Shown: positions 1 to 20,757 of the stretch, in pieces
Numbering within the stretch: position 1 is the stretch's first letter
Layout: each line of letters starts with the position of its first letter
Assembly (NCBI GenBank): GCA_964472545.1
Contig: CAYYNP010000011.1
Location: forward strand, 1 to 64,000
Source of the DNA: an uncultured Planctomycetaceae bacterium
GTDB lineage: Bacteria; Planctomycetota; Planctomycetia; Pirellulales; Thermoguttaceae
Length of the DNA stretch: 64,000 nt
Reading direction: 5' to 3'
Notes under the pieces: generated by a model
The model's database searches: none
What the model was told of the DNA's origin: nothing
The model's input: only the letters and a program-made list of their open reading frames with translations
Program-made: the position numbers and the translations under genes

Positions 1-165
1 GGAAAGCTGCCTCGTGGTGGAGTTATCGTGCCTCAAGCAGATACTCGTGAACTCGAAACTGACCGCTACGTTACCATCGCCGCAGCCGGTGGTCAACGAA
101 ATTCCGGGAGCGTGGGGCGGATTTCTGAAGAACGGCCCTAGCGGGGGGTGCGCCGTGAATCCCCG
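1..165. repeat. Copy A of a ~165-nt non-coding element that recurs at 22786..22950 (about 80 percent identical by eye). It runs off the window start and is a possible structured RNA or duplicated 5-prime leader.
   Basis: The first 34 nt are identical to 22786..22819, and there is a second conserved block, cgtggggcggatt(t)ctgaagaacggccct(a/g)gcggggg. Substitutions break any common reading frame. The ORFs at 14..199 and 22801..23013 share only their first 13 aa. Confidence 0.55.
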
Positions 166-725
166 TTTCCCGTGTGTCGCCACGGGTGCAAGCCTGTGAC
201 CGTCATGCTGCCGTCGCGGTGGAGGATGATCTCGCGGGTGGGGGCGGCGGCGAGGTCGTCGGCCGAGTGACGCGGCGTCAGGAGGTGGATCTGCTGGTTT
301 GTGGAACTCGCCAGACCGGCGTCCGCCTGCCGCGAGGCAACGTACCGGCCGGCGATCAGCACGTCGACCAGCGGGAGGATGCGCGGGCCCAGCGGGAGCT
401 CCTGGACTTCGTCGAGCGTGTAGCCGGTGAAGACCAAGCGGCCCAACGGTGCAGAATCGAGCCTCTCGAGCAGATCGAGCAGGGCGTCCGGTTGTTGGAA
501 GGGCTCGCCGCCGGAGACGCTGACGCCATCGATCTTGGGCCCGAGCGAGATGATCTCGCCGGCAAGCTGCTCGGTGTCGAACTCGACGCCGCCGCGCGGG
601 TCGTGCGTGGCCGGATTGAAACAGCCGGGGCAGCCGAGCGCGCAGCCTTGAAACCAGACGACCGCGCGGAGGCCCGGGCCGTTGGAACGGCTAGCCGGTT
701 CGAAGGCGTGCAGGCGGAACTTCAT
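138..725 (-). CDS. Radical SAM activating enzyme of the NrdG family (anaerobic ribonucleoside-triphosphate reductase activating protein family), 196 aa from the ATG at 725.
   Basis: SNGPGLRAVVWFQGCALGCPGCFNP matches the NrdG N-terminal NGPGxR..GC...CPGC(Y/F)N 4Fe-4S motif. VSVSGGEPF, LVFTGYTLDEV and STNQQIHLL match NrdG blocks. The ATG overlaps the upstream stop as ATGA. The upstream 157 codons of the track ORF overlap the FGE-like gene and are not used. Confidence 0.8.
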   Translation of the reverse strand: MKFRLHAFEPASRSNGPGLRAVVWFQGCALGCPGCFNPATHDPRGGVEFDTEQLAGEIISLGPKIDGVSVSGGEPFQQPDALLDLLERLDSAPLGRLVFTGYTLDEVQELPLGPRILPLVDVLIAGRYVASRQADAGLASSTNQQIHLLTPRHSADDLAAAPTREIILHRDGSMTVTGLHPWRHTGNGDSRRTPR

Positions 726-1507
726 GATTCGCGACGCCCTGGCGATTCGCCCGGCGATATCGCCACGCGAAACCCGGCCCCGTAGGCGTGGTACGTTGGC
801 CTGATCCGGTAGCGGCTCGTGCAGCGGAACGAGGGCGGGTGTCGGTTGTCGAACGAGCCGCCGCGTACGACACGGGCCTTCCCGCGTTCCGGAGAATCGA
901 AATCGCCGCCCCCGTATCGGGCCGAGACGTCGGGATGGTACCAGTCGGCACACCATTCCCACACATTGCCGCTCATCTGGTAATGCCCCCACCGGCTGCA
1001 GCCCTTGGCGAAGCTCCATACGCCGCACGTCGTCGCGCGGCGTTTGTTCTTGGCGTTGCGGCATCGGCTCCAGCGCCAGGTGTTGCCCCAAGGGTACTTG
1101 CGGCCGTCGAGGCCTCTGGCCGCTTTCTCCCACTCCAATTCGCTGGGCAATCGCAACCCGGCCCATTGGCAATAGGCCGCCGCGCCGTGCCAACTCACCT
1201 GCACCACGGGATGGTCGGCCTTGTCGCCGTCGGCCCGGTAGACGCCGTCCCTCTCATACACGAAGCAGTGTTGGTCCAAGAGGACCCACTGCTGAAGGGC
1301 ATCGTCGTTCGGGGCGGACTGTGTGAGAAACCGGGCATACTGTTCGTTCGTCACCGGGTGGATCGCCATGTAGAACGCCGCCGACTCCATCTCAAACCTC
1401 TCGTCGCCGGCCAGGAATCGCCCGCCGGGGACCAACAGCAAGAGGCTCCCGTCGGGGGCGTTCTCGATCAGCCAAGGCAGTGACGTCGTTGTCTGCGTGT
1501 TGGCCAT
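722..1507 (-). CDS. FGE-sulfatase (SUMF1/DUF323) domain protein, predicted catalytically inactive.
   Basis: [26 protein letters not shown] and GFRVA motifs of the FGE fold. The canonical Cys pair after GGSF (human FGE ..SFMCHRSYCY..) is replaced by FDNRHPPSF. The stop overlaps the start of the radical SAM gene. Confidence 0.85.
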   Translation of the reverse strand: MANTQTTTSLPWLIENAPDGSLLLLVPGGRFLAGDERFEMESAAFYMAIHPVTNEQYARFLTQSAPNDDALQQWVLLDQHCFVYERDGVYRADGDKADHPVVQVSWHGAAAYCQWAGLRLPSELEWEKAARGLDGRKYPWGNTWRWSRCRNAKNKRRATTCGVWSFAKGCSRWGHYQMSGNVWEWCADWYHPDVSARYGGGDFDSPERGKARVVRGGSFDNRHPPSFRCTSRYRIRPTYHAYGAGFRVAISPGESPGRRES

Positions 1508-1519
1508 GCGTGATCTGTC

Positions 1520-3091
1520 CTACGCATCGTCGGACTCGGCTGAGGCGAACCGCCATCTACCGCGGGCGTGACGTCGCAAGGCGGTGATCTTGTGCTCCAT
1601 CGACTCCGCCAACGGTACGGTCGTGGTAATAGATTGCTCGAGATGGCGGTCTTCCAGGGTGGTTGTTTCCCCTTCCGCGAAAGCTCCGTAGAGCGCCGAG
1701 ATCACGGCCTGCTCGAGCTCGGCCCCGGAGAAGCCGTCGCTCGCCCGCGCGTGCCGAGTGAGGTCGAAGGCGCGATGATCGCGCTGGTGTTTCTCTAGGT
1801 GGATGGCCAGGATATCGGTCCGCTCTTGAGGGCCCGGCAAATCGATGAAGAAGATCTCGTCGAAGCGGCCCTTGCGCAGCAACTCCGGCGGCAGGCCCTC
1901 GACGTCGTTGGCCGTGGCGATGGTGAAGACCTGCCTGGTGCTCTCCTCCATCCAGGTCAACAGCGTGCCGAACACGCGGGTCGACGTGCCCGAGTCGCCG
2001 CCGGGGCCGCGGCTTCCGGCCAGGCCCTTTTCGATCTCGTCGATCCACAGCACGCACGGGGCAACGGCTTCGGCCATCTTCAGCGCCCGACGGATGTTCT
2101 CTTCCGATTGACCCACCAAGGAACCGAAGACTCGGCCCAGGTCGAACCGCAGCAGCGGCATCTTCCACTCGGCCGATACGGCCTTGGCCGAGAGGCTCTT
2201 GCCGCAGCCGGGCACGCCGACCAGCAGGAGTCCTTTGGGGCTGGGCAGGCCGAACTGACGGGCAGCCTTGCTGAACGCTTTGCCCCGTTGGTGCAGCCAG
2301 GTCTTCAGATGCCCCAGCCCGCCGATGCTGCCGAACCGCTCCGGCGTCGAGTAGAACTCCAGGATGCCCGACTTGCGGATGATCTGCTCCTTCTCGGCCA
2401 ACAGCAGGTCGACGTCGGCGGCCGCCAGGCGGTGCCGGGTGACGACCACCTTGGCCAAGGCGTTTTCCGCTTCGGCCCGGGTCAACCCCAGCAGCGACTT
2501 GACGAGCTTCTCCCTCCCGTCGTCGGTCAGATCGATTTCGATCCGGCGATTGTCGCCGAGCTGTTCCACGGTGGCGTCGAGCACGCCGGCCAAGTCCCGT
2601 TCGTCGGGCATCGGCAAGTCGAGGACCGTGACGTCCTTCTCCAATTCCGTGGGCAGTTTCAACACGGGCGAGAGCAAGACGACCGTCTTTCGGCTGGCCT
2701 TGAACGGCGCGACCAGATCGCGAAGCTGGCGGACGGTCAACGCCGCGTTGCAGGCGCGCTCGTCGAGGAAGAAGTGAAAGTCCTCCAGCAGGAACACCCC
2801 CGGCTCCGCAAAGTCGAGCAGGTACGGCAAGATCCGTTGCGGGTCGGCCGTCTGGCGGTCGATCGCCTTGCCGTCGGCCGTGCAGAGCCCACGGGAGATC
2901 GACCAGACGTACGGCTGCCGCCCGCCGATCTCGCCGTCGGCCAGTGCTTCGGCCACCAGTTCGACCGCACGGTCTTCCTCGGGGGTGATCAGATAGAGCA
3001 GCGGGTAGCCGGCGCGAAGGTAGGTTCGCAGTTGCTCCTTGAACGGGCAGGGCGCCCGGGCGTCGTCCGATTGGCGGGGCTGACTCATCAT
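1520..3091 (-). CDS. AAA+ ATPase (paralog 1), 523 aa.
   Basis: Walker [17 protein letters not shown], Walker [11 protein letters not shown], then a sensor region. A ~270-aa N-terminal domain is paralogous to that of the ORF at 4537..6087. Confidence 0.85.
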
Positions 3092-3282
3092 TCGTACTCG
3101 CGATCGTACTCGGATTCCGATTCGGTCTGGTGGTACTCGGGCTTGAGTTCGCGCTCGTCGAGCGGGGTGCCCAGACGCTGTTCCAACTCGCGCGTGAACT
3201 CGACACAGTCTGGCCCGACGGCCCCCAGGACCTCGACCTTCTGGGTGCCGTTCTTGCGGAGGGTGATCTTGATCTTTCTCAT
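3088..3282 (-). CDS. DUF2997-like small protein, 64 aa.
   Basis: MRKIKITLRKNGTQKVEVLGAVGPDCVEFTRELEQRLG...ELKPEY fits the remembered DUF2997 pattern (I..kdG.v.veV.G..G..C...T..lE..LG....e.tpEy). The stop overlaps the AAA+ start as ATGA. Confidence 0.6.
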   Translation of the reverse strand: MRKIKITLRKNGTQKVEVLGAVGPDCVEFTRELEQRLGTPLDERELKPEYHQTESESEYDREYE

Positions 3283-3312
3283 CGCTGATGGTCCTTCTCG
3301 GGTTTCGCGTCG

Positions 3313-3723
3313 TCAGCCGCGTTCGGATAAGACGATCACCGTGTCGCCGTTTTCGAGCGTCTCTTCCGATTCGACGACCAGATCCTGCTCGCGAATCTGA
3401 TCCTGGATCACTTGGTAAGCGTAGCAGCGTTTCAACTCCGCAAGCAGCGCGCGGACTCGTTGACTTTGGCGATCGTACTCCGAAACGACCGCCTCGTATT
3501 CACCGGACGGCAGCCGCCGGAATCCCAGGTCGTTGCTCGCGTTGCCGACGAACTCCCTGCGGACGATCACCTCGGCGGTCTCCGGCCGGACGTCTCCCTC
3601 GAAGCCGTAGAGGTGCTGCGGCTTGTCGTACTGCTCCACGTGCGTGAAGCCCATCTCGTCAAGCGCCTGCAAGAGGAGCGGCAATTCACGGATCTGTGTG
3701 CGGACGAGCGTGTAATGGGACAT
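3313..3723 (-). CDS. DUF1257 (Ycf35-like) protein, 137 aa from the ATG at 3723.
   Basis: MSHYTLVRTQIRELPLLLQALDEMGFT resembles the Ycf35/DUF1257 N-terminus MSHFT.IKTQIRD...L..LGF. The upstream part of the 205-aa track ORF overlaps the FGE-like gene at 3764..4540 in another frame and is excluded. Confidence 0.65.
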   Translation of the reverse strand: MSHYTLVRTQIRELPLLLQALDEMGFTHVEQYDKPQHLYGFEGDVRPETAEVIVRREFVGNASNDLGFRRLPSGEYEAVVSEYDRQSQRVRALLAELKRCYAYQVIQDQIREQDLVVESEETLENGDTVIVLSERG

Positions 3724-3763
3724 GGCAAAGTCTCCTTGGCCCGCTGGGGCAGGTTGGTTGGAT

Positions 3764-4540
3764 TCACTCGTCGAGGCTTCTGGCCACCCGAAACCCGAAG
3801 CATCCGCGGTAGCCCGGCAGGATGCCGTGACGGCAAAGCGCGCAGCGGAAGAAGCCGGGAAAGTCGAGATAGAACGACCCGCCGCGCAACACGCGTCGTG
3901 TCGCCGCGTCACCGGAGCGTGCCGTTGCACGCTTCTCGTACAAGTCGGCGCACCACTCCCACACGTTGCCGCTCATCTGATAGTGCCCCCAAGGGCCACA
4001 CCCGTCGGGATACTCCCACACGCTGCACGTGGTCTGCTCACCCTTGTTTTTGTCGTTGCGGCATTTGCTCGGGTCCCACTCGTAGCCCCAGGGATACTCT
4101 CGGCCGTCGACGCCCCGGGCCGCCTTTTCCCACTCGAGCTCCGTCGGCAGCCGCAGCCCGGCCCAACGGCAATAGGCGTTGGCGTCGTCCCAGTCGACGC
4201 AGACGACCGGATGGTCCCGTCGGTCGGCCGGAAACCGCCTACCCCGCCAGACAGGGTCGCCATAATCGCTCCTGTCCGGCGGGCGGTGCCGGGTGGCGTC
4301 GACGAATCGCTTGTACTGCGCGTTGGTGACCGGCGTGATCCCCAGGTAGTACGGCGGCAACACGACCTCGGCCTTCTGCTGGCCGGCCAGGAACTTCCCG
4401 GCCGGAACCAACAGCAAGATACTCCCGTCGGCGTCGTTCGTCAGGAGCATCTGCCCGAACTGTTCGACGGACCGCTGGGGCATCAAATCCCACGGGCTAA
4501 GCGTGGGCCACCCGGCATAGGTTTGCAGCGACTGCTTCAC
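3764..4540 (-). CDS. FGE-sulfatase domain protein (paralog 2), predicted inactive. Start is assigned to the GTG at 4540.
   Basis: C-terminal 258 aa of the 560-aa track [41 protein letters not shown] and RVLRGGSF are present. Its N-terminus aligns with that of the gene at 6084..6932. GTGA overlaps the AAA+ stop. An alternative ATG at 4483 is possible. After GGSF the sequence is [13 protein letters not shown], so there is no canonical Cys pair. Confidence 0.8.
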
Positions 4541-6087
4541 GTTTCGATGATCCTCCCGGTCGGGCTGCGGCGGTCTTGTTCCTCTCTCGACGCCGGAGCC
4601 GCGCGGCCTTCGGTCTTCCAACGGCGCAGGCTTTCGATCTCCTCGGTGTGCGATTCGCTGATCGGCACGGTCTCCTGCAAGGCGGCCAGCAGGTCGCGTT
4701 GCTCGATCTCGCGATTTTCGTCGGCGAAGGCGGTGAATTGGGCCTCGCGCACCGCCCGCTCGATCTCGCGGCCCACCATGCCGCGGCTCTTGGCGACCAA
4801 TTCGTCGAGGTCGAACTCCCGTTCCGGGAATGCGGTGCCGGCGCCGCGCAGATGGATCAGGAAGATCGCCCGGCGTTCGTCGGCGTGGGGCAGGTCGAGA
4901 AAGAACGTGCGATCGAAACGGCCCATCAACTCCGGCGGCAGGGCGGTCACGTCGTTGGCCGTGGCCACCACGAAAACCGGCGTGCGGTGCTCCTGCATCC
5001 AGGTCAGAAACGTGCCGAAGACCCGCGTGGCGGCCCCGCTGTTGAGCGTGTTGGCCCCGGTGCCGGCGAAGGCCTTCTCGATCTCGTCGATCCAGAGGAT
5101 GCACGGGCTGACCGTTTCGGCGAGCATGATCGCCTTGCGCATGTTCTGTTCGCTTTCGCCCAACAGCGAGCCGAAGAGCGTGCCCACGTCCAATCGCAGA
5201 AGCGGCAACTTCCACAACCCGGAGAGCATCTTGGCCGAGAGGCTCTTGCCGGTGCCGGGGATGCCGATCAGGGCCACGCCGCGCGGGAAGGGCAACCCGG
5301 CCTCGCGGGCCTCGCCGCCGAATCCGGCCTCGCGCTTCTTCAGCCAGACCTTCATCAGGTCCAATCCGCCCACGTCCGCCTCGCCCGCGTCGGCCGGCCA
5401 GAACTCCAACGCCCCGCTCTGCCGGATCACTTCCCGCTTGGCCCAAGTGACCAACTCGATACCCCGCTCATCGAAGACGTGATGATGGGCCCAAACCCGC
5501 GAGAAGGCAAGCCGGGCCTGGTTGGTCGTCAGCCCCAGGGCCGATTGGACGAGCTTGTCTTGTACTTGGGGTTCGGGCAGCTTCGAACGGTCGAGCTTGG
5601 CGGTCACCTCCTCGAACAACCGCCGCAGCTCCTTCCGCCCGGGCAAGGGCACGTGCAACACGACCACGTCGTCGCGCAACTCCAGCGGCAGGTCGTGCTC
5701 CGGCGGCAGCGGCGGCGTGGTGAAGATCAGGTACTGACTCTGCGCACGCAGCCGCCGGGCCATGTTGCGCAGCTTACGGGTGATGATCGAACGCCGCTGA
5801 TTCCACGAGTGATGGAAGTCCTTCAGCACCAGCACGCAGCCGGGGGGCATCTTCTCGGCCACGTGCCGCAACACCGTCTCGGTGGTGCAGTCCTTCGGCG
5901 GAAACGGCTCCCGCCCGGCACGATGGTCGCGGAAGCCGTCGGCGACGTCCCAACTGGTGATCCCCAGTTCGCGGGCCGATTCGATCTCCCCCAACGTCCG
6001 CAGCACCCGGTCTTCCTCGTAAGTGACCAGATGGAGCATCGGCACGTGGGCCGCAAGCAGGGCGTTAAGTTCTTCTTTGAGGTTCAT
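4537..6087 (-). CDS. AAA+ ATPase (paralog 2), 516 aa.
   Basis: Walker [16 protein letters not shown] and Walker [11 protein letters not shown]. The N-terminal domain [15 protein letters not shown] is similar to paralog 1. ATGA overlap with the upstream FGE-like stop. Confidence 0.85.
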
Positions 6088-6932
6088 ATCAGGTCCTGCT
6101 TAGTGGAGCGTCGTCCGCCGTCGACGTGAACCGCCCTGGCTACGCGAAAACCGATCAGCGAGCGGCGATGCGGTGGAGCGTGGTCGCGATGGTCGCCGCG
6201 GAAGAGAGTCGGATTGCCGCGGGCGAACGACCCGCCGCGGACCACGCGAGACGTTCCCTCGTCCGGCGAGGCAAGGTCTCCTCGACGATAACGGTGGTAC
6301 GCCGCAGGGTCGTACCTGTCGGCACACCACTCCCACGCGTTGCCGCTGAGGCCGTAATGTCCCCACGTGCTGCAACCGGCCGGATAATCCCAGACGTCGC
6401 ACACCGCCTCGCCGTCGCGGTTCTGTTGGTTGCGGCATCGGGCGGCGTCCCATTGGTTTCCCCAAGGGTACTCTCGACCGTCGACGCCGCGGGCGGCCTT
6501 CTCCCACTCGAGTTCCGTCGGCAGCCGCAACTTGGCCCAACGGCAATACGCGACCGCGTCGGTCCAACCGACTTGCATCACCGGATGCCGGGCCTGCTGC
6601 TGCGGCAGATGCGTCCCCCGCCACGCCGCGTCGCCGACGTCGGCCCGGTTCGGACGGCGATGTCCGGTGGCCACGACGAATCGCTGGTACTGCAAGTTCG
6701 TCACCGGCGTGATCCCGAGATAATACGGCGGAAGTTCGACCTCAAACCTCTCCTTGCCCGCCAGAAACTTCCCGCCGGGCACCAGCACCAGCGTACTGCG
6801 GTCGATCGGGTTGACATAGAGCATCTGCTGATATCGCCGCGCAAAGTCGCCCGAAAGCACGTCCCAGGTCGTCAGCGTGGGCCAGTCGGTGTTCGTGGTT
6901 GGCAGTGTGCTCATCGGTTCGAGTTCGTTCAA
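6084..6932 (-). CDS. FGE-sulfatase domain protein (paralog 3), predicted inactive.
   Basis: [50 protein letters not shown] and IGFRVARA are present. There are no Cys residues at all after GGSF (ARGNPTLFRGDHRDH). Confidence 0.85.
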   Translation of the reverse strand: MNELEPMSTLPTTNTDWPTLTTWDVLSGDFARRYQQMLYVNPIDRSTLVLVPGGKFLAGKERFEVELPPYYLGITPVTNLQYQRFVVATGHRRPNRADVGDAAWRGTHLPQQQARHPVMQVGWTDAVAYCRWAKLRLPTELEWEKAARGVDGREYPWGNQWDAARCRNQQNRDGEAVCDVWDYPAGCSTWGHYGLSGNAWEWCADRYDPAAYHRYRRGDLASPDEGTSRVVRGGSFARGNPTLFRGDHRDHAPPHRRSLIGFRVARAVHVDGGRRSTKQDLI

Positions 6933-6945
6933 GTGCGGCCTTTCG

Positions 6946-8601
6946 TCACAGGCGAACGACCGGGTGTTCCTCCAGCAACGTCTTTCCGGAGAGATTATCC
7001 AACACCGTAACCAACAGCCGACGGTGGCCGTCGACCTGAAACGAGCAGAGGAAACGCTGGGCGTCTCGCGGCAGACTGACGGGCGGGTCGGCGACGATGA
7101 ACGTGGGATTCTCGCGATTCAAGCAGAAATGACCGAACTCCGTGACCACGTGGCTGTCGTCGTTGAGCACGCCGTCGGCGTCGACCAGATCGATCGTGGC
7201 ACGGCGGGGCTTCATCCGCGAGACCTCGAAGATCTTCAGACCGATCCGCGTCATTCCGTCATAGCTGCCGCGGGCCCAAAGCCGGACCGCGTCGGGCCCG
7301 GTGGGGTATTCGGTGCCGGTGGAGAACATCGGCTTGAACTCGTAGTCGCGCCGCTGGGCGTTGTAGCTCTCGATGGCGTAGTCGTGCTGCAAGATCGGTA
7401 CCACAACGCCGCGGCAGGCACCGCGAACCACGGCGTCGAACGGGTTGCCCAGCACGGCACGGCCGTCGAACGCGTCGATCAGCAACCGCCGCACGCAGGG
7501 CACCAGGCTGGTGCCGCCGGTGACCAGCACCTTGACCACGTCGTCGCGCCGCACGCCCGCTTTGATCGCCGCGTTCTCCAACGCCCGATCGATCGTTTGC
7601 CGGACCTGTTCGAGAAAGCCCGCCTTCGCCACCAAACAACCGAAGCAGGCCTCGTCCGACTGCGGGTGATCGCCCACAGAGCCTTGGCCACACTGCGGGC
7701 AGTTGCGTCGATACGTGGTTCGCATCAGCCGCCCGTGCGCGCCGGCGCCCTCGGACACGGAAACGTCGGCCTGCGTCTTGGCCGGATCGGAAAGCGTGAC
7801 TTTGGCCTCTTCCACCTGCCGCAGCACGACGGCCTGCAACCGGCGCCGTTGGCCGTCGTCGATGGCGTGCCGCCGGCAGAAATCGTCGGCCAGATAGCGG
7901 TCGAGGTCCATGCCGCCGAGGTCTTGGCCGGCCCGGCCGAGTTGAATCGCCTTGCGGTCCGACGCGGCCGCGAAATCAACGCGGACCACGGCCACGTCGA
8001 GCGATCCGCAGCCAAAGTCGAAGACCACGAAGCGATCTTCCTTGCGGGCGGCGCCGTGAAATCCCAGGATGCAAGCCGTCGGCTCGTCGAGCAGCCGCAG
8101 CCGGCGGATCCCCACCGCCTCGGCCACCCGGCGGATCCAGTCCTCGAAGTTCTCGAACGCCTCGGTCGGGGCCGTGAACGTGAACTCGTCGTCTTCCAGC
8201 GAAATCCGATCCGAAGCGTAGCGGAGCAGTAGGGTGAGGAAGTCCTCGCCCGCCTGCGCCGGGCTCTTGTGGCCCTGGGCAGTCTTCTTTCGCCGCGTGG
8301 CGCCGTGGGCAATCCCGCGTTTCATCCAGCGGAACGTGTCGCGATGTTCGGCCAGGCCGCGGGCGAGGACCTGATTGCCGATGAGCGTCTCGGTCTGCGA
8401 ATAGTGGATTAACGAGGGCGTTACCGGAACCAAGAGCCTCCGATCCGCTTGCTGCCGGTTCGGGATGAACTCCATCGCGGCCATGATGCCGGGAATCTCG
8501 ATCGTCTCGACACGCTCGGTCGTCTCGTCGAAGCGTGCCAGGACGGTGTTGGCGGTGCCGAAGTCGACGGCGACTTTACTCACGTTGCGGCTCCTCTGCA
8601 T
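6946..8601 (-). CDS. Hsp70-family ATPase (DnaK-like nucleotide-binding domain plus a beta-SBD-like C-terminus) with a 4-Cys insert, ~552 aa.
   Basis: VAVDFGTANTVLA (phosphate-1), LLDEPTACILGF (IINEPTAAA-like), VVFDFGCGSLDVAVV (DLGGGTFDVS-like) and VLVTGGTSLVPCVRRLL (adenosine motif). The C-terminal TIDLVDADGVLN resembles Hsp70 FDIDANGILN. CPQC..(14)..CFGC is inserted in the NBD. The ATG at 8601 overlaps the upstream gene, and a GTG at 8583 is an alternative start. Confidence 0.75.
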   Translation of the reverse strand: MQRSRNVSKVAVDFGTANTVLARFDETTERVETIEIPGIMAAMEFIPNRQQADRRLLVPVTPSLIHYSQTETLIGNQVLARGLAEHRDTFRWMKRGIAHGATRRKKTAQGHKSPAQAGEDFLTLLLRYASDRISLEDDEFTFTAPTEAFENFEDWIRRVAEAVGIRRLRLLDEPTACILGFHGAARKEDRFVVFDFGCGSLDVAVVRVDFAAASDRKAIQLGRAGQDLGGMDLDRYLADDFCRRHAIDDGQRRRLQAVVLRQVEEAKVTLSDPAKTQADVSVSEGAGAHGRLMRTTYRRNCPQCGQGSVGDHPQSDEACFGCLVAKAGFLEQVRQTIDRALENAAIKAGVRRDDVVKVLVTGGTSLVPCVRRLLIDAFDGRAVLGNPFDAVVRGACRGVVVPILQHDYAIESYNAQRRDYEFKPMFSTGTEYPTGPDAVRLWARGSYDGMTRIGLKIFEVSRMKPRRATIDLVDADGVLNDDSHVVTEFGHFCLNRENPTFIVADPPVSLPRDAQRFLCSFQVDGHRRLLVTVLDNLSGKTLLEEHPVVRL

Positions 8602-10114
8602 CGACGAATTCGGCTGTAAACTCGCCGGTCTCGACGACCATCTCCTCGAAGATCCCCGCCGTGACGCGATGGGATATGATCGTATGCAGCACTTTGCGGG
8701 CCGCCCCGAGTTTGCCTCTGAAGGCCTCGGCCGGGGCGTTGGCCAGCGTGTCCAGGTCGGCCGGCGTGGCGCGGCCCGGCCAGAGTTCCAACACACCGGA
8801 AGCCGTGGCCAACTCGGTGACCCAGTAGTTGGCGTCCTCGGTCGTGTCGGCCGTCAGTTCCAGCGACAGCCCGGCGATCTGGCCGGCGAGGCGGACCATC
8901 CAGTGCGGGCTTTGCCGCACCGCTTCGGCGGCCGCCGAGCCCGGCCGCGACTTGGCGGCCAGCGCGCCGACGATCACCACGCCCTGCGGCGGCGCCGCCG
9001 CGGCGAGTTGCTGCAACAACCCGGACTCGCTCACGGTGGTCAATTCACTCTGCCGGCCTCGGGCAAGCAACTGCTCGAACAGCGGGCTTTCGGCCTTTGG
9101 CCGCTTCGTCGTGGGAGTGATCTGACCGTCGCTATCAGCCAGAATCCGTCGATACACTTCACGCTCGTCGCCAGACTCCGGCTCCCAGGCCGACCCGCGC
9201 ATCGCCGGAAACGCCGCGAAGCTGTATTTCAAAGGCAACTCCAGACAGGCACGAAACAGCCGCGGCCAGTCCTCGTGGCTAATCCAGGAGTCGACGGCCA
9301 GCTTGATTTCCGACTCGCTGCACTCCGACAGCGGCCGGCTCTTGGTGCCGAAGAACGCGGCGCAACGGCGATCGCCCGAGCGGACCACGTCCATCACGTG
9401 GGCTCGAATCGTCGCGTCGGCCCGCTCGTACTCGAGTTTCAGATTCTGGAAGGCGTAGTCTTCCTCGAAATACTCGTCCAACTGCCGCGTGACGAAGAGG
9501 AACAGGCAAAGCCGTTCGGGGTCTTCGGGGCGGTGGCCGGCTTGCAGGCAGAGTTCCGCGGCCGGGCCAGCAGGCTCTCGAATGGCCTCGGTGCAGAGCG
9601 CTTCGCGTTGGGGCCCGACGGGAACGTCTCGGAGCGTTGCGTCGGCACCCAAGCGGACGACTTCGTCAGCATCGTCTAGCAGCGAGACGAAAAGCGGAAC
9701 CATGTCGGGCCGGTCGACGACCACCTGCCGGCCGGATTTCAGCGCGGAAAGGGCCTTCACCTTCAACGGGGCGGCGGCCACGTAACGCTGTTCGGCAAGG
9801 ATCGTCCCCAGCCGCTCCTGGCGCCCCTCGGCCCACAAGCCGCACAGCGCGTCGATCGCCGGTTGGGCCTCCAGATTGGCCAGCGCCCGGCGTGCTCCGG
9901 CGGCGATTTCCTCGTATGGCGAGGAGGATGCCTCGGCCAACAACGCCACGGCAGACGCGTCGTTACGGTTCTCGTGCAACGCTTCGAGCGCCGTGCGTCG
10001 CCACCGTGGCCCCAAGAACGGAATCGACGACCGCAGTCTCCGCCGCCACCTATTCAAGAGCCTTCGCGTGATCATCCGCGGTGCACCCGTTGGCTGTCGA
10101 CGATCGCCCTGCAA
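8576..10114 (-). CDS. Hypothetical alpha-helical protein (HEAT/ARM-like repeats plausible), first gene of the operon.
   Basis: 512-aa ORF with helical-repeat-like segments (AVALLAEASSSPYEEIAAGARRALANL..AIDALCGLW). Likely real start at the M at 10075 (MITRRLLNRW). There is 300 nt of non-coding sequence upstream. Confidence 0.5.
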   Translation of the reverse strand: MQGDRRQPTGAPRMITRRLLNRWRRRLRSSIPFLGPRWRRTALEALHENRNDASAVALLAEASSSPYEEIAAGARRALANLEAQPAIDALCGLWAEGRQERLGTILAEQRYVAAAPLKVKALSALKSGRQVVVDRPDMVPLFVSLLDDADEVVRLGADATLRDVPVGPQREALCTEAIREPAGPAAELCLQAGHRPEDPERLCLFLFVTRQLDEYFEEDYAFQNLKLEYERADATIRAHVMDVVRSGDRRCAAFFGTKSRPLSECSESEIKLAVDSWISHEDWPRLFRACLELPLKYSFAAFPAMRGSAWEPESGDEREVYRRILADSDGQITPTTKRPKAESPLFEQLLARGRQSELTTVSESGLLQQLAAAAPPQGVVIVGALAAKSRPGSAAAEAVRQSPHWMVRLAGQIAGLSLELTADTTEDANYWVTELATASGVLELWPGRATPADLDTLANAPAEAFRGKLGAARKVLHTIISHRVTAGIFEEMVVETGEFTAEFVDAEEPQRE

Positions 10115-10414: not shown

Positions 10415-11107
10415 CTATCTTCTCCGCCGCCAGCCGTGCAACGCCAGCCCCAGCAGGCTGAAGGCAGCGAGGCCGACAATGGAGGGTTCGGGCACGAGGG
10501 TCAAAGAAGTCAACGGACCGCCGATCGTGAAGTAGGCGGCTGGGCCGAGACACGGGGTACACTCCCCTTTGATCGTCAGTTGGTTGCTGTCGAAAAGCAG
10601 CAGGTCCGGCGGCGTGAGCGGCAAGGCCGCGCTGTCGAGCGGGCTTTCGCGAAACGTCGACGCAAACCAACTGATATTCAGGCGGTCGACCGGCGCGCCG
10701 GGACGCAACCCGAGGGCTTCGTTGTTGCGGCTGAGGAAGCCATACTCGTCGGCGCCGGTGATCCCGACCTCATTGTTGACGATGACGTCGAAGTCCGGCG
10801 TGGCGGAGACCGTGCGAAAGATGTAATTGCCCACCTCGATCCGCACGCCGGCAGGTGGCGCGTCGTGGTGGTAGAGCCCGGGTTGCCCCTCGTCTTGCGG
10901 CTCGGCCGTGTTGGGTACGTCCGTGTGGAACGTGTAGTAGCCCGTGAACGTGGTCGTCCCCGGCACGACGGAATTGTCCAGCTCGTTGAGGCCGTCGAAG
11001 ACATCCTCCACGGTTCCCGTGAAGGCGAACGTGACCGATTCTGCGTTTACCCGGCCCACACTGGCCAGGACTACCAGGGCAGTGATACTCAGAATTGATG
11101 GTCTCAT
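10415..11107 (-). CDS. PEP-CTERM sorting-domain protein, secreted.
   Basis: N-terminal signal peptide MRPSILSITALVVLASVGRVNA. C-terminal VPEPSIVGLAAFSLLGLALHGWRRRR (PEP motif, TM helix, Arg cluster). Confidence 0.7.
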   Translation of the reverse strand: MRPSILSITALVVLASVGRVNAESVTFAFTGTVEDVFDGLNELDNSVVPGTTTFTGYYTFHTDVPNTAEPQDEGQPGLYHHDAPPAGVRIEVGNYIFRTVSATPDFDVIVNNEVGITGADEYGFLSRNNEALGLRPGAPVDRLNISWFASTFRESPLDSAALPLTPPDLLLFDSNQLTIKGECTPCLGPAAYFTIGGPLTSLTLVPEPSIVGLAAFSLLGLALHGWRRRR

Positions 11108-11184: not shown

Positions 11185-12342
11185 TCAACGACGGCGGCGT
11201 TTGTGTCGAGCGTAGGCCAACGTCAGCGGCATCGCCATAGCGGCCAGCAGCGCAAAGCTGGAAGGTTCGGGGATCACGGCCTGCCAGGCTTCGGGGTGCC
11301 CCAACGGATTCACTCCGTGTCCGACGATCACCGTGCCGTCGGCCGAGATTCCCGTTGCCGACTGCAAATCCCAGCCGTCCAGTACCAGTCCGTAGTCGTT
11401 GGTCAACACGTCTTCGAGGTCGCGCATGCCGTGGGTCGCATCCCAGAGGAACGCTCCGCCGCCCGAACTGTACCCGACGATCTTGGAGCCATCGCCCGAG
11501 ACGCTCAGGGCTCGGCTCTGGTCTTCGCGTTCCGGGTTCGTGCCCAGCATTCCCAGTCCAACCATGCCCCCTTCAGGCGTCCAACGGAACGCTTCCATGT
11601 CGAAGAATGAACGGGCCCATCCTACGACTACCGAGCCGTCGGCAGTGACGGCCAGCGCCGTGCTGCGACCTAGATTGTCGGGCCGCAAGGTGCCCAAGCC
11701 AATCATCCCCTCGCCGACGGTCCAGTGAAAAGCCTCCACACCTCCATACTGCTCGGTGTGGGAGATGCTCCCTCCCACGATCACCGAGCCGTCGGCGGAG
11801 ACACCGCTGGCCTCGCTCTTGAACTCGTCGCCGGGCAAGTCGCCCAGACCGACCATCCCACTCTCGGCAGTCCAGCGGAACGCCTCCGTACCGTTGGCAG
11901 ACGGAGCGCTCCCTACGACCACGGAGCCGTCGGCAGAGACACCCCGGGCAAAGGTATTAAAGCGGTTGCCGCCGGGCAGGTTACCCAGGCCAATCGTTAC
12001 GTCGGCAGCCGTCCAACGAAACGCCTCGGGGAGCAGGAAGAAGCTGTTTCCCACGATCACCGAGCCGTCGGCCGACACGGCAAGAGCGTAGGTGGTGGTC
12101 TGGCCCACCGGCAGATCGTCCAGGCTCGTCATCCCACCGGCCTCGGTCCAGCGAAACGCCTGGCTGCCCCAATCAGACGTGCTCGATCCCACGACCACTC
12201 GGCCGTCCGCCGACACGGCATCAGCCGCGCTCGAGAATTCGCCGCCCGGCAAGTCCGCCAGGCCCCGGAAACTGGCTGCCCGGACGGGCGTCACGCCGAC
12301 CAGCAGCGCCAGTATCGCTACAGTCAAGATTGACAGTTTCAT
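11185..12342 (-). CDS. HAF-repeat extracellular protein with PEP-CTERM anchor.
   Basis: Signal peptide. At least seven repeats of the form (A/E)AFRWT...GM..LG.LPGG..S.A.GVSADGSV(V/I)VG, which is the HAF-repeat pattern. C-terminal VIPEPSSFALLAAMAMPLTLAYARHKRRRR. The ATG overlaps the upstream gene stop (ATGA). Confidence 0.75.
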   Translation of the reverse strand: MKLSILTVAILALLVGVTPVRAASFRGLADLPGGEFSSAADAVSADGRVVVGSSTSDWGSQAFRWTEAGGMTSLDDLPVGQTTTYALAVSADGSVIVGNSFFLLPEAFRWTAADVTIGLGNLPGGNRFNTFARGVSADGSVVVGSAPSANGTEAFRWTAESGMVGLGDLPGDEFKSEASGVSADGSVIVGGSISHTEQYGGVEAFHWTVGEGMIGLGTLRPDNLGRSTALAVTADGSVVVGWARSFFDMEAFRWTPEGGMVGLGMLGTNPEREDQSRALSVSGDGSKIVGYSSGGGAFLWDATHGMRDLEDVLTNDYGLVLDGWDLQSATGISADGTVIVGHGVNPLGHPEAWQAVIPEPSSFALLAAMAMPLTLAYARHKRRRR

Positions 12343-13394
12343 GCCACTCTCCTTTCACGGATCCAGACAAACGTCAGCAGTATCATCACGGCGGCCATCA
12401 GCAACGCCAGGCCGGACGGCTCGGGGATCACGGCCCGCCAGGCTTCCCACTGGCCGGACGGGTTCAACCCGGAACCGACGATCACCGTGCCGTCGTCCGA
12501 GACGCTGCCCGCGCCGGACAGCTCCCACCCCGTCAAATCGAGCCCGAAATCATTGGTCAGCACCTCCTTCAGATCGCGCATTCCGTGCGTTTGGTGCCAG
12601 ATAAACGCCCGCGTGTCGCCCGCCCCGCTATGCCCCACGATCACCGAGCCGTCGCCGGAGACGTCCCGCGCCCGGCTCTCACTATCGCCGGGCAAGGCGC
12701 CGAGACCGACGACGCCGGTCTCGTCGGTCCAGCGAAAGGCGATTCCGGGATCGGCAGGGCCGGGCGGCCCCGTGTAGGCTAGCCCCACGACGGTCGACCC
12801 ATCGGCGGAAATGGCTTGCGGCTCGACGGTCCAGCCAGGCGCGGTTACGAGGCTGACCCATCCGGTCCGGGCAGTCCAGCGTCCGGGCCATCCGACGATT
12901 GCCGAACCGTCGGCCGAGACGTCGTAGCACGAGTAGCCCATGTCGACCATGCCGGTCTCGGCGGTCCACCGGAAATCACTTCCCACGATCACCGATCCGT
13001 CGGTGGAGGCTCCCAAAGCGCGGCTGTCTTCGAGAGGTTCTGGTCCGTCGTCCAGTACGAGAGTCCCTTCGGCCGCCGTCCAGCGAGCCGCATTCCATTC
13101 GTACATCCCTTCCACTTCACCCACCAGCACGCGCCCGTCGCCGGAGACGGCGTTGACAAAGATCTCCGGCCTCCACTGCATCCCGGTTTCGGCCGTCCAG
13201 CGAAACGAGTGCATCGCGATCGAGTCGGAACGGCTGCTGAGGCCGACGATCACCGAGCCGTCGGCCGAAATGCCGCGAGGATAACTCGAATGTCCGTCGT
13301 CCAAGAAGCCCAGGCCCCGGAAACTGGCGGCCGGTGCCTGCCCCGCACCGAGCAGGTTCACCAACATCGCCATACTCAGAATTGATCGCTTCAT
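12339..13394 (-). CDS. HAF-repeat extracellular protein with PEP-CTERM anchor (tandem paralog).
   Basis: Signal peptide MKRSILSMAMLVNLLGAGQAPAASF. Repeats FRWTAETGM / AFRWTDETGVVGLGALPGD..DVSGDGSVIVG. C-terminal VIPEPSGLALLMAAVMILLTFVWIRERRVA. The start is taken at the ATG at 13394, preceding the signal peptide. Confidence 0.75.
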   Translation of the reverse strand: MKRSILSMAMLVNLLGAGQAPAASFRGLGFLDDGHSSYPRGISADGSVIVGLSSRSDSIAMHSFRWTAETGMQWRPEIFVNAVSGDGRVLVGEVEGMYEWNAARWTAAEGTLVLDDGPEPLEDSRALGASTDGSVIVGSDFRWTAETGMVDMGYSCYDVSADGSAIVGWPGRWTARTGWVSLVTAPGWTVEPQAISADGSTVVGLAYTGPPGPADPGIAFRWTDETGVVGLGALPGDSESRARDVSGDGSVIVGHSGAGDTRAFIWHQTHGMRDLKEVLTNDFGLDLTGWELSGAGSVSDDGTVIVGSGLNPSGQWEAWRAVIPEPSGLALLMAAVMILLTFVWIRERRVA

Positions 13395-13606
13395 ATCGCT
13401 CCTCCTCTCACGGTTCCGATGTGATTGGGAACACACAGCCGGCTCGAAACTAGATCGCACGCGCGTAAACGGTAGACAATCCGGCCGGTCCGGCGGTGCC
13501 TTCGCCGAACCCGCACTGCAAGAACACGGGTATCCGGCGACCGTGCCAAGTTGCCGTTGACGTCCGATTGATGAGTCGACGCTGCGTTTAGAGCCTCACG
13601 ACCGCC

Positions 13607-13705: not shown

Positions 13706-13778
13706 GCCGGTCACGATTGCCGGTCACGATTGCCGGTCACGATTGCCGGTCACGATTGCCGGTCACGATTGCCGGTCA
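13706..13778. repeat. Tandem 13-bp repeat, gccggtcacgatt, 5.6 copies.
   Basis: Perfect copies at 13706, 13719, 13732, 13745 and 13758, plus a partial copy. The period of 13 is non-coding. The array abuts the stop codon of the kinase gene and lies ~300 nt upstream of the HAF-repeat gene. Confidence 0.9.
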
Positions 13779-16700
13779 GTCAGGTTGCTCATCCTCTTCT
13801 CTTTGTGTCGTCGCCGTCGCGCCCAACTCCCTAGCGGCCTCGTCTCGGAAGCGGCGGAGTTCTTCATCGTCGGGCCGATGCTCGTTCATCCACCGCACGG
13901 CCTTGTCGTACCAGCGGCGGGCCTCACGATCGTTGTGCTGCTTTGCATGGGCCATCGCCAGAAAGAACCACCCCGGGCCGTTGGAGCCGTAGAAGTCGAC
14001 GGCGTGATAGTCGAAGTCGCCGGCTCGCTCCAACGCCTCTTGGGCTTTGGCGTACTCGCCCACACGGTACCAGGCCGCCCCGAAGATCTTCCAGGCGGCT
14101 CCCGAATCGGGTACTTGTGTGGTCAGTTCCTCGGCCAACTCGACCGCTCGGGGGCCGTCCCGCAACGCAGGATACCGACACGTGGCCAGAAACCATGCCG
14201 CACGAAGCCGAGCTTCTAGAGAGCGGGTGCCGATGTTGCGGGCCCTGTTGGCGTCGGCCAAAGCGGCCTGCATCTCGTTCAGTTCGACCAGGACTTCTGC
14301 CCGGCAGTGATAGGTTTCAACGGAGTTCTCATGCAAACTGATCGCCTTGTCGAAGTCGTTGCGGGCTCGCGCAGCGTCGCCCTCGTATCCCCTGGCGACA
14401 TAGATCCTCCCGCGACTGGAATATGCCCAGGGGTTCTCGGCAGAGGATATCGCTACGTTGAGTTCGTCAAGGGCCAAATCGAACCTGTGCTGCTTGCCGT
14501 AGCCGATTCCCAGGCCCACGCGGCACGAAGACCGATGCGGGGACAAGGCGACTGCTTTCTCGAGGTCCTCGACGGCCCTATCGAGATCGCAGCCCCTGCA
14601 GAAGGCGAGTCCTCGCTGGAAGTAGGCACAGGAGAGTTCCGGATCCCGTCGAATCGCCTCGTCGAAGTCGGCAATGGCCTGCTCGAATCGACCTGCCTTG
14701 ATCTGGCTGACACCTCGGCCGACGTAGCTGAGGACGTACGTCGGATCGAGCCGGATCGCTTCGCTGAACGCGGCTACTGCTCGGTCAAGATCGTCGCTCT
14801 GCTCGTGTACCTTGCCTCGCCAGTAATACGCTAGCGTCCTCTTTGGGTCAACCCGGATTGCCTCGGACAGATCGGCCAACGCTCTGTCCGGCCTTCCCAA
14901 CTTGAAGCAGGCTCGTCCTCGATTCACGTAGTTCGTCGCCAGGTTTCGGATCGCCACGCCGGGGGAGAGACTCGGGGCGTCGGCATCCAGGTGAATTTCT
15001 ATTGCTTGGCTGTAGTCGGCAATGGCCTTGTCGATCTCACCTCTTCGCTCGTGGGCCAGACCGCGCTGGTTGCAGGCGTAGCTGCTTGCCGGGTTCAGTC
15101 TGATCGCTTCGGTGAAGTCGGCGATCGCCCGGTCATAGTCGCGTTTTTCCAGGTAGGCATTCCCCCGGTCCCAGTAGGCCTCCGCGTAGACCGGGGTCAG
15201 TCGCAGGGCTTCGCCGTAGTCGGAAAGAGCCTCTTCGAGTCGACCTTGCCTGACGTAAAGGTCTCCGCGACGGTCACGAGCCGCGGCTAACTTTTTCTGG
15301 TAATGACGGATCTCTGCGTCCAGCCCGTCCAAGCCGTCCTTGGTAGCCATTGGGTCGAGATCATCCCGTTCATCCCTGACGTGGTCCAGCCCACGGCGCG
15401 AGGACGCAGACCCCACGGAGCCGCCCTCGGCGACCCCGGACAGTTCCAAGACGCGGTCGTACGTGCGTGTTGCATCCTCGAACTTCCCCTGGCTTCGCAG
15501 CACGTCGTCCAGGTAGTAGTAACAGCGGGCCAGCAGCAGATTGTACCGATCGGGATCTTCGGCCGCGAGCTTCTCGTAGATGGCAATCGCCGCACGCAAC
15601 GACCGTTCGGCCGCTTCGTGCCTGCCCAACCTTGCACATCCCCAGCCGCGCTGGTATTGCATCGAAGCCAGGCGGGAACGATGCCGGGAACTGCCGCGGA
15701 CTTCATCGGGCAGCCTGGCGTCGAGTTCCGTCGCGTAGTCCACGAGTTGTCCGACTTCCGTCAGGCCGTTTCGGCGAGCCAGACCCTGGATCGCCTCTTC
15801 CATGTGGTCCAGCAGACTATCGACCGTGCGATCCGCCCTCTTGCGCTGTGCCGCCTCCGCCTCGTAGGCGCCGGCGATTAGCAACGTGCTGACGGACATC
15901 GCCACGACCGCCATTACCAATACCGCGATGGCCGACCAAACGGCCGGCCGATGTCGTCGGGACCACTTGGCGACCCTTGCGGCCAGCCGCGGCCGGCGAG
16001 CTCGGATCGGCTTGTCTTCGACAAACCGCCGCAGGTCGTCGGCCAACTCTGCGGCCGTGGCGTAACGGGCCTGTGGCTCTTTGGCGATGGCCTTCAGGAC
16101 GATCGTCTCCAGGTCCTTTGGGACTGCTCCGTTAAGTTGCCGCGGGGATGGAGGATCTTCCTCGATAATCTGCGACATGATTCGCTGCCGGTCGTCGCTC
16201 GCAAACGCAGGTTGCAACGTCAGCATTTCGCAGAGCGTAATGCCCAGCGAGTAAACGTCCGTGCGGTGATCCAACACACCATGTTTCGCCTGCACCTGCT
16301 CGGGGCTCATGTAGCGAAGCGTACCCAGCAGGTCGCCCGTCATGGTGAGATTCGTGTCGGTCTGTGTCATCGCCAGGCCGAAGTCGGCAATCCACAAGTG
16401 TCCTTCCGCGTCGGTCATCAGGTTCGACGGCTTGATGTCTCGATGCACCACGCCCATTTGATGTGCGTGCTCCAGCGCGCCGGCCGCCTGGATGCCCAGA
16501 TTGGCTACACAGCGGAAGAACTCTACCGTGCGGGTCGAAGCCTCCGTGGAAACGCCCTCTTGCGCCTGGCGCCGAGTCTCGGTCAACGCGGATACCAGAC
16601 CATGGGTCGAAGGAGGAGGTTCCGCAATGGGGGCATCCCCGTTGGCCGGCGACGGCCGAGGCGAATCCGAATCGCCCGCCGGGGAGTCCGGATCGTCAAC

Positions 16701-20666: not shown

Positions 20667-20757
20667 GATGAACCTCCCACCCGAAAGCACCCTTGGCCAC
20701 GCCGGCCAGTCTACCACACCTCGCGGCCGCGGGAGAAGGACCTTGGGCATGTGGCCG

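Follow-up and report, generated by a model that had tools for sequence, protein, structure and literature searches.

What does a protein of the formylglycine-generating enzyme (FGE) fold do when the residues that make the enzyme are missing? The question is raised by a 64-kb stretch of DNA from an uncultured Planctomycetaceae bacterium (assembly GCA_964472545.1, contig CAYYNP010000011.1, positions 1 to 64,000; hereafter the window), in which three genes, FGE1, FGE2 and FGE3, encode FGE-like proteins among genes for ATPases. An earlier note, made from the letters of the sequence, had taken them to be probably non-enzymatic binding or sensor modules. The analysis reported here supports that view on two grounds, the loss of the copper ligands and the diversification of orthologues by diversity-generating retroelements (DGRs). 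With moderate confidence, we favour the reading that FGE1–3 are binders of the C-type-lectin/FGE fold that serve as the variable parts of a conserved ATPase/chaperone machine. The genes concerned are ten, tightly packed on the minus strand in the first 10 kb of the window (138-9979).

138..725, minus strand: NrdG/PflA-like radical S-adenosylmethionine (radical-SAM) protein, 195 aa, CxxxCxxC (PF13353, E=1.5e-28)
722..1507, minus strand: FGE1, standalone FGE-sulfatase-fold protein, 261 aa (PF03781, E=2.5e-51)
1520..3091, minus strand: AAA1, tandem AAA+ protein (PF00004, E=1e-31)
3088..3282, minus strand: DUF2997 small protein, 64 aa (PF11211, E=6.6e-10)
3313..3723, minus strand: DUF1257 (Ycf35-like) protein, 136 aa (PF06868, E=1.1e-13)
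3764..4540, minus strand: FGE2, FGE-fold protein, 258 aa, GTG start (PF03781, E=1e-47)
4537..6087, minus strand: AAA2, AAA+ ATPase paralogous to AAA1 (PF00004, E=2.4e-27)
6084..6932, minus strand: FGE3, FGE-fold protein, 282 aa (PF03781, E=7.2e-48)
6946..8601, minus strand: divergent Hsp70-like (actin-fold ATPase) protein, 551 aa (PF00012, E=9e-18)
8576..9979, minus strand: HEAT-repeat-like protein, 467 aa, first gene of the cluster (weak PF13646 match)

By domain and fold, all three FGE-like proteins belong to the FGE-sulfatase family, PF03781 being full-length in each open reading frame (ORF). In true FGEs, Cys269 and Cys274 (numbering of the T. curvata enzyme, tcFGE) form a trigonal Cu(I) site together with the substrate cysteine (PMC6676471), and the tcFGE variants C269S and C274S have no activity and do not bind Cu(I) (PMC5324649). 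When the window proteins were aligned to solved FGEs with HMMER, the catalytic loop of tcFGE, GGSFLCHESYCNRYRV, came to lie opposite GGSF--DNRHPPSFRC in FGE1; in a longer alignment KGGSFLCHESYCNRYRVAAR lies opposite RGGSF--DNRHPPSFRCTSR. The ligand Cys269 falls into a two-residue deletion in FGE1, where Cys274 is Pro224 and Arg276 is Ser226. The loop is just as short in FGE2 and FGE3 (GGSFARGNPTLFRG), where Pro stands in the place of Cys274, and the Arg276 position is Ser, Phe or Leu across the three proteins. The ligand cysteines (C336 and C341 of human FGE, C269 and C274 of tcFGE) are therefore absent from FGE1, FGE2 and FGE3, which bears out the claim that all three domains lack the catalytic pair. 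With both Cu(I) ligands absent, and with tcFGE inactivated by Cys-to-Ser changes, FGE chemistry is excluded on present knowledge; judged from these alignments, none of the three is a formylglycine-generating enzyme, and a copper-FGE role is ruled out as far as that chemistry is understood. None of the 120 closest homologues carries CxxxxC at the FGE position, so the loss of the pair characterizes the whole family and is no accident of decay.

Some details of the earlier note need amendment. The human motif has the two cysteines attributed to it, but it reads GGSYMCHRSYCYRYRC (GGSYMC), with Tyr and not Phe after GGS. The FGE1 segment keeps only the cysteine of its RC, as had been claimed, but the FGE2 segment holds a second (FRCALC), three residues past the RC at a family-variable position that is not conserved. 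The statement that FGE3 has no cysteine holds for the quoted segment only; five occur elsewhere in the protein. The RC cysteine that FGE1 and FGE2 share aligns with human C346; C235, the partner of C346 in a structural disulfide of the human enzyme, has Ala at its position here. The remainder of the fold signature is kept as described, with WEKAARG, GN[VA]WEWCAD and GFRVA in all three proteins. Three further PF03781 genes without a CxxxxC pair lie on the minus strand at 18369-19640, 19662-20750 and 20758-21750; one product has a hydrophobic N-terminus and leucine-rich repeats, one is apparently secreted and one has a PEP-CTERM end. Cysteine-less FGE folds are thus common in this genome.

FGE1–3 belong to a family of standalone proteins of ~250 aa with more than 7000 matches at E<1e-10, mostly in Planctomycetota-like metagenome bins. 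The family pattern, RGGSW-x4-P-x2-FRCA-x-R-x4-P-x2-R-x4-GFRVAR, recurs in the last ~35 residues of the window proteins as a C-terminal scaffold, RGGS[FW]-x4-P-x2-FRC-x2-R-x4-P-x2-R-x4-GFRVA. In an alignment of 119 sequences, the top column entropies within the domain are at FGE1 residues 220-226, 231, 233-236, 238-239 and 241-244; these columns are the old catalytic loop and the stretch that follows it, flanked by invariant anchors. Identity among the three window proteins is 49–57% (~50% between FGE1 and either FGE2 or FGE3), and homologous FGE-like genes show 50–61% identity, the closest homologue of FGE1 in a named genome being P0003 (61%). The family is cellular and not phage-borne, since a scan of IMG/VR gave a single weak relative (32% identity). 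The one variant of FGE1 found in a 90% cluster, a very small sample, is F60L and lies outside the variable segment.

The loss of catalytic residues might also be expected of functionless, decaying pseudo-enzymes. The reading frames are nevertheless intact and tightly coupled to their neighbours, 43 columns are invariant across 22 family members, and the family combines its thousands of homologues with synteny across phyla. Conservation on this scale already refutes that explanation, to which we give next to no credence.

Evidence on what the variable segment may be for comes from homologous gene clusters. A scan of one genome per species gave 78 loci, onto which the ten window proteins were mapped by tblastn. 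Clustering of the remaining ORFs in related loci brought out a reverse transcriptase (RT) gene in L004, L005, L006, L019, L025, L028 and L031. The RT matches RVT_1 (E=1.8e-24) and neighbours both a bAvd gene (PF22296, E=9e-22) and a template repeat (TR) of ~127-135 nt, 25-29% adenine. Copies of the template, here called variable regions (VRs), differ from it almost only where the TR has adenine.

L004 (Thermoguttaceae), 3211-6151: DGR cassette of bAvd, TR and RT; TR/VR mismatches at TR adenines 14/16 and 13/14
L005 (Acidobacteriia), 6747-9634: DGR cassette of bAvd, TR and RT; four variable regions on one template, mismatches at TR adenines 22/27, 22/26, 24/28 and 19/23
L006 (Planctomycetota), 2125-4583: DGR cassette of bAvd, TR and RT; mismatches at TR adenines 22/23
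L019, L025, L028 and L031: DGR cassettes also present

For L004, L005 and L006 together, 136 of the 157 TR/VR mismatches are at TR adenines, and the diversified VR codons are NNY in 86 of 87 cases. The cassettes directly precede the HEAT-like gene, and two to four FGE-like genes share one TR. These three cassettes are canonical DGRs.

The mutated stretch is the 3' end of the orthologous FGE-like genes. The L004 targets P0003 and P0015 are 61% and 59% identical to FGE1, above the ~50% that separates FGE1 from FGE2 or FGE3, and the VR-bearing genes of L005 share FGE1-type slots, after AAA1, after a third AAA gene and before the radical-SAM gene. Where codons are diversified is also where the column entropy of the family is greatest and where the catalytic loop used to be. 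Since it is deliberately randomised in orthologues, the former copper-site surface is not a fixed active site; the segment is a surface that the family diversifies deliberately, in some genomes by a dedicated retroelement. The corresponding segments of the window proteins are the following.

761..865, minus strand: variable-region-like segment of FGE1 (RGGSFDNRHPPSFRCTSRYRIRPTYHAYGAGFRVA), predicted specificity surface (column entropy; collinear with TR and VR of L004, L005 and L006)
3782..3886, minus strand: variable-region-like segment of FGE2 (collinear with the TR-encoded peptide of L004)
6138..6239, minus strand: variable-region-like segment of FGE3 (RGGSFARGNPTLFRGDHRDHAPPHRRSLIGFRVA), without Cys (collinear with the TR-encoded peptide of L004)

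These findings bear on whether FGE1–3 might mature sulfatases after all, using thiols from another part of the chain or provided in trans. Sulfatases are plentiful in planctomycete-like genomes, and the O2-pocket residues Ser266 and Trp228 of tcFGE are retained in FGE1 as S218 and W183. The pocket Ser and Trp are, however, encoded by A-free codons in the TRs, and are for that reason constant scaffold, amid residues that the DGRs of the orthologues randomise. Both copper ligands are missing from a shortened loop, Arg276 has given way to Ser, Phe or Leu, and profile scans of the operon proteins found no sulfatase gene in the operon. We regard persisting FGE activity as extremely improbable.

Another chemistry would be a different matter. 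The FGE-like proteins could be other enzymes, working through a conserved site outside the old loop or with the radical-SAM partner (compare EgtB, OvoA and PvdO). Seven Cys positions are 77–98% conserved in the family, C161 and C170 being family-specific; in nine loci the radical-SAM gene comes straight after an FGE-like gene, with a stop/start overlap in the window; and there is weak NCBIfam similarity to EgtB, SenA and PvdO. An AlphaFold2 model of FGE1 (22-sequence alignment as input, mean pLDDT 77, pTM 0.81) is weak over residues 131-180 (pLDDT ~50). Foldseek placed bacterial and human FGE structures at the top of its matches (TM 0.60–0.66, 24–30% identity; tcFGE TM 0.64), with pFGE, ToxD, CalU17, OvsA and EgtB after them. 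Against another enzymatic role, the best-conserved cysteines, C149 (98%, in RCRN) and C186 (97%, in EWC), align with the RCN and EWC cysteines of tcFGE, which are not copper ligands (PMC6676471). C81, C113, C161, C170 and C229 are replaced in 9–23% of members, and C161 and C170, replaced in 14–23%, do not strictly co-vary. The EgtB, OvoA and SenA profiles score 68–98 bits against cutoffs of 360–420 and match in their C-terminal part only, and PvdO, GldJ and GldK-PorK score 18–68 bits against cutoffs of 350–500, which places FGE1–3 in none of these groups. At 258-282 aa the window proteins consist of the FGE domain only, without the N-terminal DinB-like domain, with its iron-binding His triad, that the sulfoxide synthases EgtB, OvoA and SenA need. 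Their orthologues, moreover, are DGR targets, which has so far been a mark of binding proteins. Together these points make a new enzymatic role unlikely.

If the FGE-like proteins are binders, their genomic company should say something of what they bind for. Counts of synteny given here rest on the tblastn mapping, greedy ORF clustering having picked antisense ORFs in the high-GC DNA. Nineteen of the fetched loci carry at least two other genes of the cluster; one of these, L001, is the window's own contig, an identical metagenome contig on which an independent JGI gene call gave the same genes, so that 18 are independent. The metagenome-assembled genomes (MAGs) concerned are labelled Planctomycetota (Thermoguttaceae, Phycisphaerae), Acidobacteriota (Acidobacteriia, Bryobacterales, Vicinamibacterales), Hydrogenedentota, Verrucomicrobiota, Deltaproteobacteria with Polyangiaceae (Myxococcota), a Burkholderiales bin and UBP9, and the cluster core spans at least six phyla. 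The core consists of the HEAT-like gene, the Hsp70-like gene (joined in some loci by GrpE), two or three genes for tandem AAA+ proteins, DUF1257, DUF2997 and the NrdG-like radical-SAM gene. These ATPase and chaperone genes are constant, and one to eight FGE-like copies per locus are inserted at several junctions: AAA then FGE 11 times, Hsp70-like then FGE nine times, FGE then radical-SAM nine times, and FGE then HEAT-like eight times. The HEAT-like gene keeps the same position in 17 related loci.

In the window, 4-nt stop/start overlaps occur at four junctions: FGE3/AAA2 (ATGA), AAA2/FGE2 (GTGA), FGE1/radical-SAM (ATGA) and, from the coordinates, DUF2997/AAA1. The earlier note had each FGE-like gene translationally coupled to an ATPase gene. 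This is right for FGE2 and FGE3, both of which overlap AAA2, but FGE1 begins 12 nt after the AAA1 stop, near it and not overlapping. Gene order thus suggests a functional link between the FGE-like proteins and the ATPases. An N-terminal sequence common to FGE2 and FGE3, WPTLxxWD, was considered as a general AAA-docking motif and dropped, being present in no other fetched locus.

The ATPases themselves are well preserved, the AAA proteins of the cluster having intact Walker A and B motifs. The C-terminal half of AAA1 is a classical AAA module of the Cdc48/p97-D2 type (E~1e-52 to p97 D2), which also has the two arginines of its second region of homology (SRH). Its first 271 residues (2278-3091) have no P-loop or Walker A, and their model (pLDDT 86) is AAA+-like, matching RuvBL, RFC, Pex1/6 and TRIP13 at TM 0.45-0.53; going by this model, AAA1 is a tandem (type-II-like) AAA+ protein with a degenerate first domain. 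JGI assigns AAA1 orthologues to the SpoVK/Ycf46/Vps4 family. AAA2 is 39% identical to AAA1, and its SRH is shortened to PPELMGRFD, two residues shorter than the AAA1 type and lacking one arginine. The same sequence is found consistently in AAA2-type orthologues (L004, L020, L061 and L066), and this shared lack of an arginine suggests that AAA1 and AAA2 are two non-equivalent subunits, perhaps forming a hetero-hexamer whose ATPase sites are asymmetric. AAA1 orthologues from more than 100 clusters are 64–78% identical, so that the ATPase core is much better conserved than the FGE-like genes (50–61%), as befits a constant engine with variable receptors.

The Hsp70-like protein matches Hsp70 nucleotide-binding domains (E~1e-14). 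In L010 (1648-2178), L019 (4999-5574) and L021 (4559-5284) a GrpE-like gene (PF01025, E=3e-6) lies between the HEAT-like and Hsp70-like genes, which overlap in the window, where no GrpE-like gene is found. This constant presence of chaperone-type genes raises the possibility that the FGE-like proteins are themselves the clients, or the building blocks, which the Hsp70-like and AAA+ proteins fold, assemble or recycle into a larger structure, and hypermutated proteins could plausibly need such help. Yet the C-type-lectin/FGE scaffold, as in TvpA and Mtd, bears massive VR variation without helpers (PMC5758913), and most DGR targets of the FGE fold elsewhere have no such chaperones (PMC5758913, PMC8144416). 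Two or three distinct conserved tandem AAA+ proteins, together with DUF1257, DUF2997 and a radical-SAM protein, also exceed what folding would require. We therefore think it improbable that the FGE-like proteins are what the machine works on, and prefer to see them as its receptors.

No gene adjoins an FGE-like gene more constantly than the radical-SAM gene. The radical-SAM protein scores 94 bits with NrdG TIGR02491, under the cutoff of 126, and matches PflA at E=6.5e-11; no glycyl-radical enzyme lies near this gene in the window or in nine related loci. The full-length DUF1257 proteins inspected (3313-3723 in the window; L011, L021 and L027) end in LSERG-COOH or YSERG-COOH, with a conserved C-terminal glycine. 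L004 (2065-2382) and L006 (507-701) have a gene for a small ribbon-helix-helix/HicB-like protein immediately before an FGE-like gene, on its upstream side, and L061 (6452-6706) has one immediately upstream of DUF1257; the window has no counterpart. The intergenic spaces of L019, a deltaproteobacterial locus, are full of repeats of ~110 nt with internal inverted repeats, resembling repetitive extragenic palindromes or miniature inverted-repeat transposable elements (4670-5030, 7480-7760, 9350-9450 and 10800-11020).

How much of this has precedent? The FGE-sulfatase/CLec1 class is the largest class of DGR targets in Wu et al. ('category b'); its prototype, TvpA, has no formylglycine-generating activity, and TvpA-type FGE-fold targets are thought to bind ligands, the variable face of the C-type-lectin/FGE fold being the ligand-binding one (PMC5758913). 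Like Treponema denticola TvpA (PDB 2Y3C), the window proteins are standalone PF03781 proteins with an RGGSW...GFR scaffold that exposes binding-determining positions. Their orthologues in L004, L005 and L006, with RT, bAvd, TR and adenine-specific VR changes, are true members of the class, from which the window copies differ in having no RT or TR within the 64 kb and in the indels and non-NNY codons of their VR-like segments. TvpA-type proteins are surface proteins or lipoproteins, whereas FGE1–3, in whose N-termini no signal peptide is visible by inspection, are encoded inside an ATPase operon and would be cytoplasmic.

With the enzymes themselves (human SUMF1, T. curvata, S. coelicolor) FGE1–3 share the fold (TM ~0.64), motifs of the WEKAARG type, GNxWEW and GFR, and the O2-pocket Ser and Trp; they differ in lacking the Cu(I)-ligand cysteines and Arg276, in a loop shorter by two residues and in the absence of a sulfatase context. 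The paralogue pFGE/SUMF2 (PDB 1Y4J) likewise has the fold without the catalytic cysteines and is non-catalytic, but it is a eukaryotic endoplasmic reticulum protein that partners FGE and sulfatases, and has neither a variable surface nor an ATPase context.

The FGS domains have been put forward as sensors of invaders inside the cell, linked to NTPases and DGRs (PMC7159879, PMC8195603). As in these conflict systems (Kaur, Burroughs, Iyer, Aravind 2020, 2021), a cysteine-less FGE fold accompanies NTPases, often in several copies and with a DGR. The FGS systems, however, have MoxR-vWA-VMAP, iSTAND, STAND or GTPase cores to which FGS is usually fused; the window proteins are standalone, and their core is made of two or three classical-clade, Cdc48/FtsH-like tandem AAA+ proteins, the Hsp70-like and HEAT-like proteins, DUF1257, DUF2997 and the radical-SAM protein. 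Pfam and NCBIfam scans found no vWA, MoxR, STAND or EAD domain in the window cluster, which places it outside the MoxR-vWA/STAND-FGS systems. A fusion of CLec with an AAA ATPase is given as the commonest DGR target in the candidate phyla radiation (CPR) and DPANN (Paul et al. 2017, as cited in Dore et al. 2024, 10.1101/2023.09.22.558884). In that case too a lectin-fold receptor of the DGR type is associated with an AAA-type ATPase, a likeness of architecture; there the two are one polypeptide, in the window they are separate, coupled genes, and the lineages and RT clades also differ.

Finally, the cluster unites the three families of the cyanobacterial and plastid genes Ycf46 (AAA+), Ycf35 (DUF1257) and DUF2997, of which a cyanobacterial DUF2997-DUF1257 (ycf35)-ferredoxin fed7 cluster is on record (PMC4284462). 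In the literature searched, no FGE-like, Hsp70-like or radical-SAM partners are reported for Ycf46, Ycf35 or DUF2997, and nothing there links DUF1257, DUF2997, Hsp70, HEAT-like, radical-SAM or classical tandem AAA+ proteins with FGE-fold or DGR receptors, an absence that is not proof. Cysteine-less binding modules of the FGE fold are already well described (TvpA, the DGR 'category b', the FGS sensors); the conserved ATPase/chaperone core around them appears to be undescribed.

We can now state how such a system might work. The specificity of each FGE-like protein would be seated in its last ~35 residues, the region of the copper site in true FGEs, and through this C-terminal surface each would recognize a different macromolecular ligand. 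The ligand would be presented, or its presence signalled, to the adjacent tandem-AAA+/Hsp70 remodelling machine, whose constant parts would be the HEAT-like protein, the Hsp70-like ATPase, two non-equivalent tandem AAA+ proteins, each pairing an inactive D1-like half with an active half of the Cdc48-D2 type, DUF1257, DUF2997 and the NrdG-like radical-SAM protein. By analogy, the FGE-like proteins may resemble the adaptors of AAA+ unfoldases, or the FGS lectin-fold sensors of NTPases; a sensor and an adaptor would look the same in these data. The repertoire of receptors would be renewed by the built-in DGR in sister genomes and held as fixed paralogues in the window. The cytoplasmic location, the coupling to the ATPases, the nature of the ligand, a role in defence and the part of the radical-SAM protein are all points that we infer. 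More tentatively still, and with the odds rather against it, the clusters could constitute a so far undescribed and widespread intracellular surveillance system, in which arrays of lectin-fold receptors hand foreign proteins to a double-ring AAA+/Hsp70 machine with the radical-SAM protein as output or effector.

Several observations weigh against the view of FGE1–3 as variable receptors of such a machine. A cognate TR with an RT is present in L004, L005 and L006; in the 64-kb window neither was found by blastn of the three 3' ends or by tblastn with the L004 RT. The window copies do carry the C-terminal RGGSW...GFR scaffold of DGR variable proteins, but their three VR-like segments differ in length by single-residue indels, and 6 of 34 template-equivalent positions have codons other than NNY. 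Because of these length differences and non-NNY codons, one template is not rewriting the window copies at present. As to the past, codons at positions equivalent to TR AAY are NNY in 28 of 34 cases against a background of 52% (Fisher p=3.5e-4). Among residues with four- or six-fold degenerate codons, however, the count is only 8 of 14, and the excess comes from residues whose codons are all NNY (Tyr, His, Asp, Asn, Phe, Cys and Ile). The signal therefore reflects which amino acids occur there, with no synonymous footprint, and does not demonstrate that a DGR once acted on the window copies. The window trio look like old, diverged, fixed paralogues, and their repertoire like a fixed one.

Other points on the same side concern the machine and the system as a whole. 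The pore loops of both AAA proteins are non-aromatic (GSLVGQSE and GSLLGESE), which is atypical for a processive unfoldase. No recognizable toxic effector or protease is encoded and there is no evident defence-island context; PADLOC-DB v2 gave only generic IetA/TRIP13-like AAA matches, and the FGE-like, Hsp70-like, HEAT-like, DUF and radical-SAM proteins had no match in it. The seven conserved non-catalytic cysteines are placed by alignment and not in three dimensions, the FGE1 model being of low confidence at 131-180. Beyond the domain level, everything rests on gene order. It is with these points counted in that we hold the binder reading at the moderate confidence stated at the outset.

Beyond the cluster the contig runs on into a pentapeptide-repeat gene, which is outside the conserved set. 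Three exported proteins with PEP-CTERM-like ends are encoded on the minus strand at 10415-11107, 11185-12342 and 12339-13460, two of them with many AFRWT...GM..LG repeats; a Pfam scan of the products of 10415-11107 and 11185-12342 gave no confident domain. Further on, also on the minus strand, a gene for a Ser/Thr kinase of 1169 aa with a long tetratricopeptide-repeat array (13776-17285) overlaps the stop of a gene for an extracytoplasmic-function sigma factor (17282-17890).

The finding is an ordinary one so far as the domain goes; its interest lies in receptors wired to conserved ATPases and chaperones over at least six phyla. A review of DGRs in immunity has suggested that cytosolic variable proteins may direct their targets to ATP-dependent machinery, and gives no candidate (PMC10053308). 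Clusters of the type found in the window would be a candidate for it. They also provide a functional lead for the long-orphan trio of Ycf46-type AAA, DUF1257 (Ycf35) and DUF2997 proteins. For the action of cellular, non-phage DGR targets, the cluster offers a testable mechanism in a compact operon.

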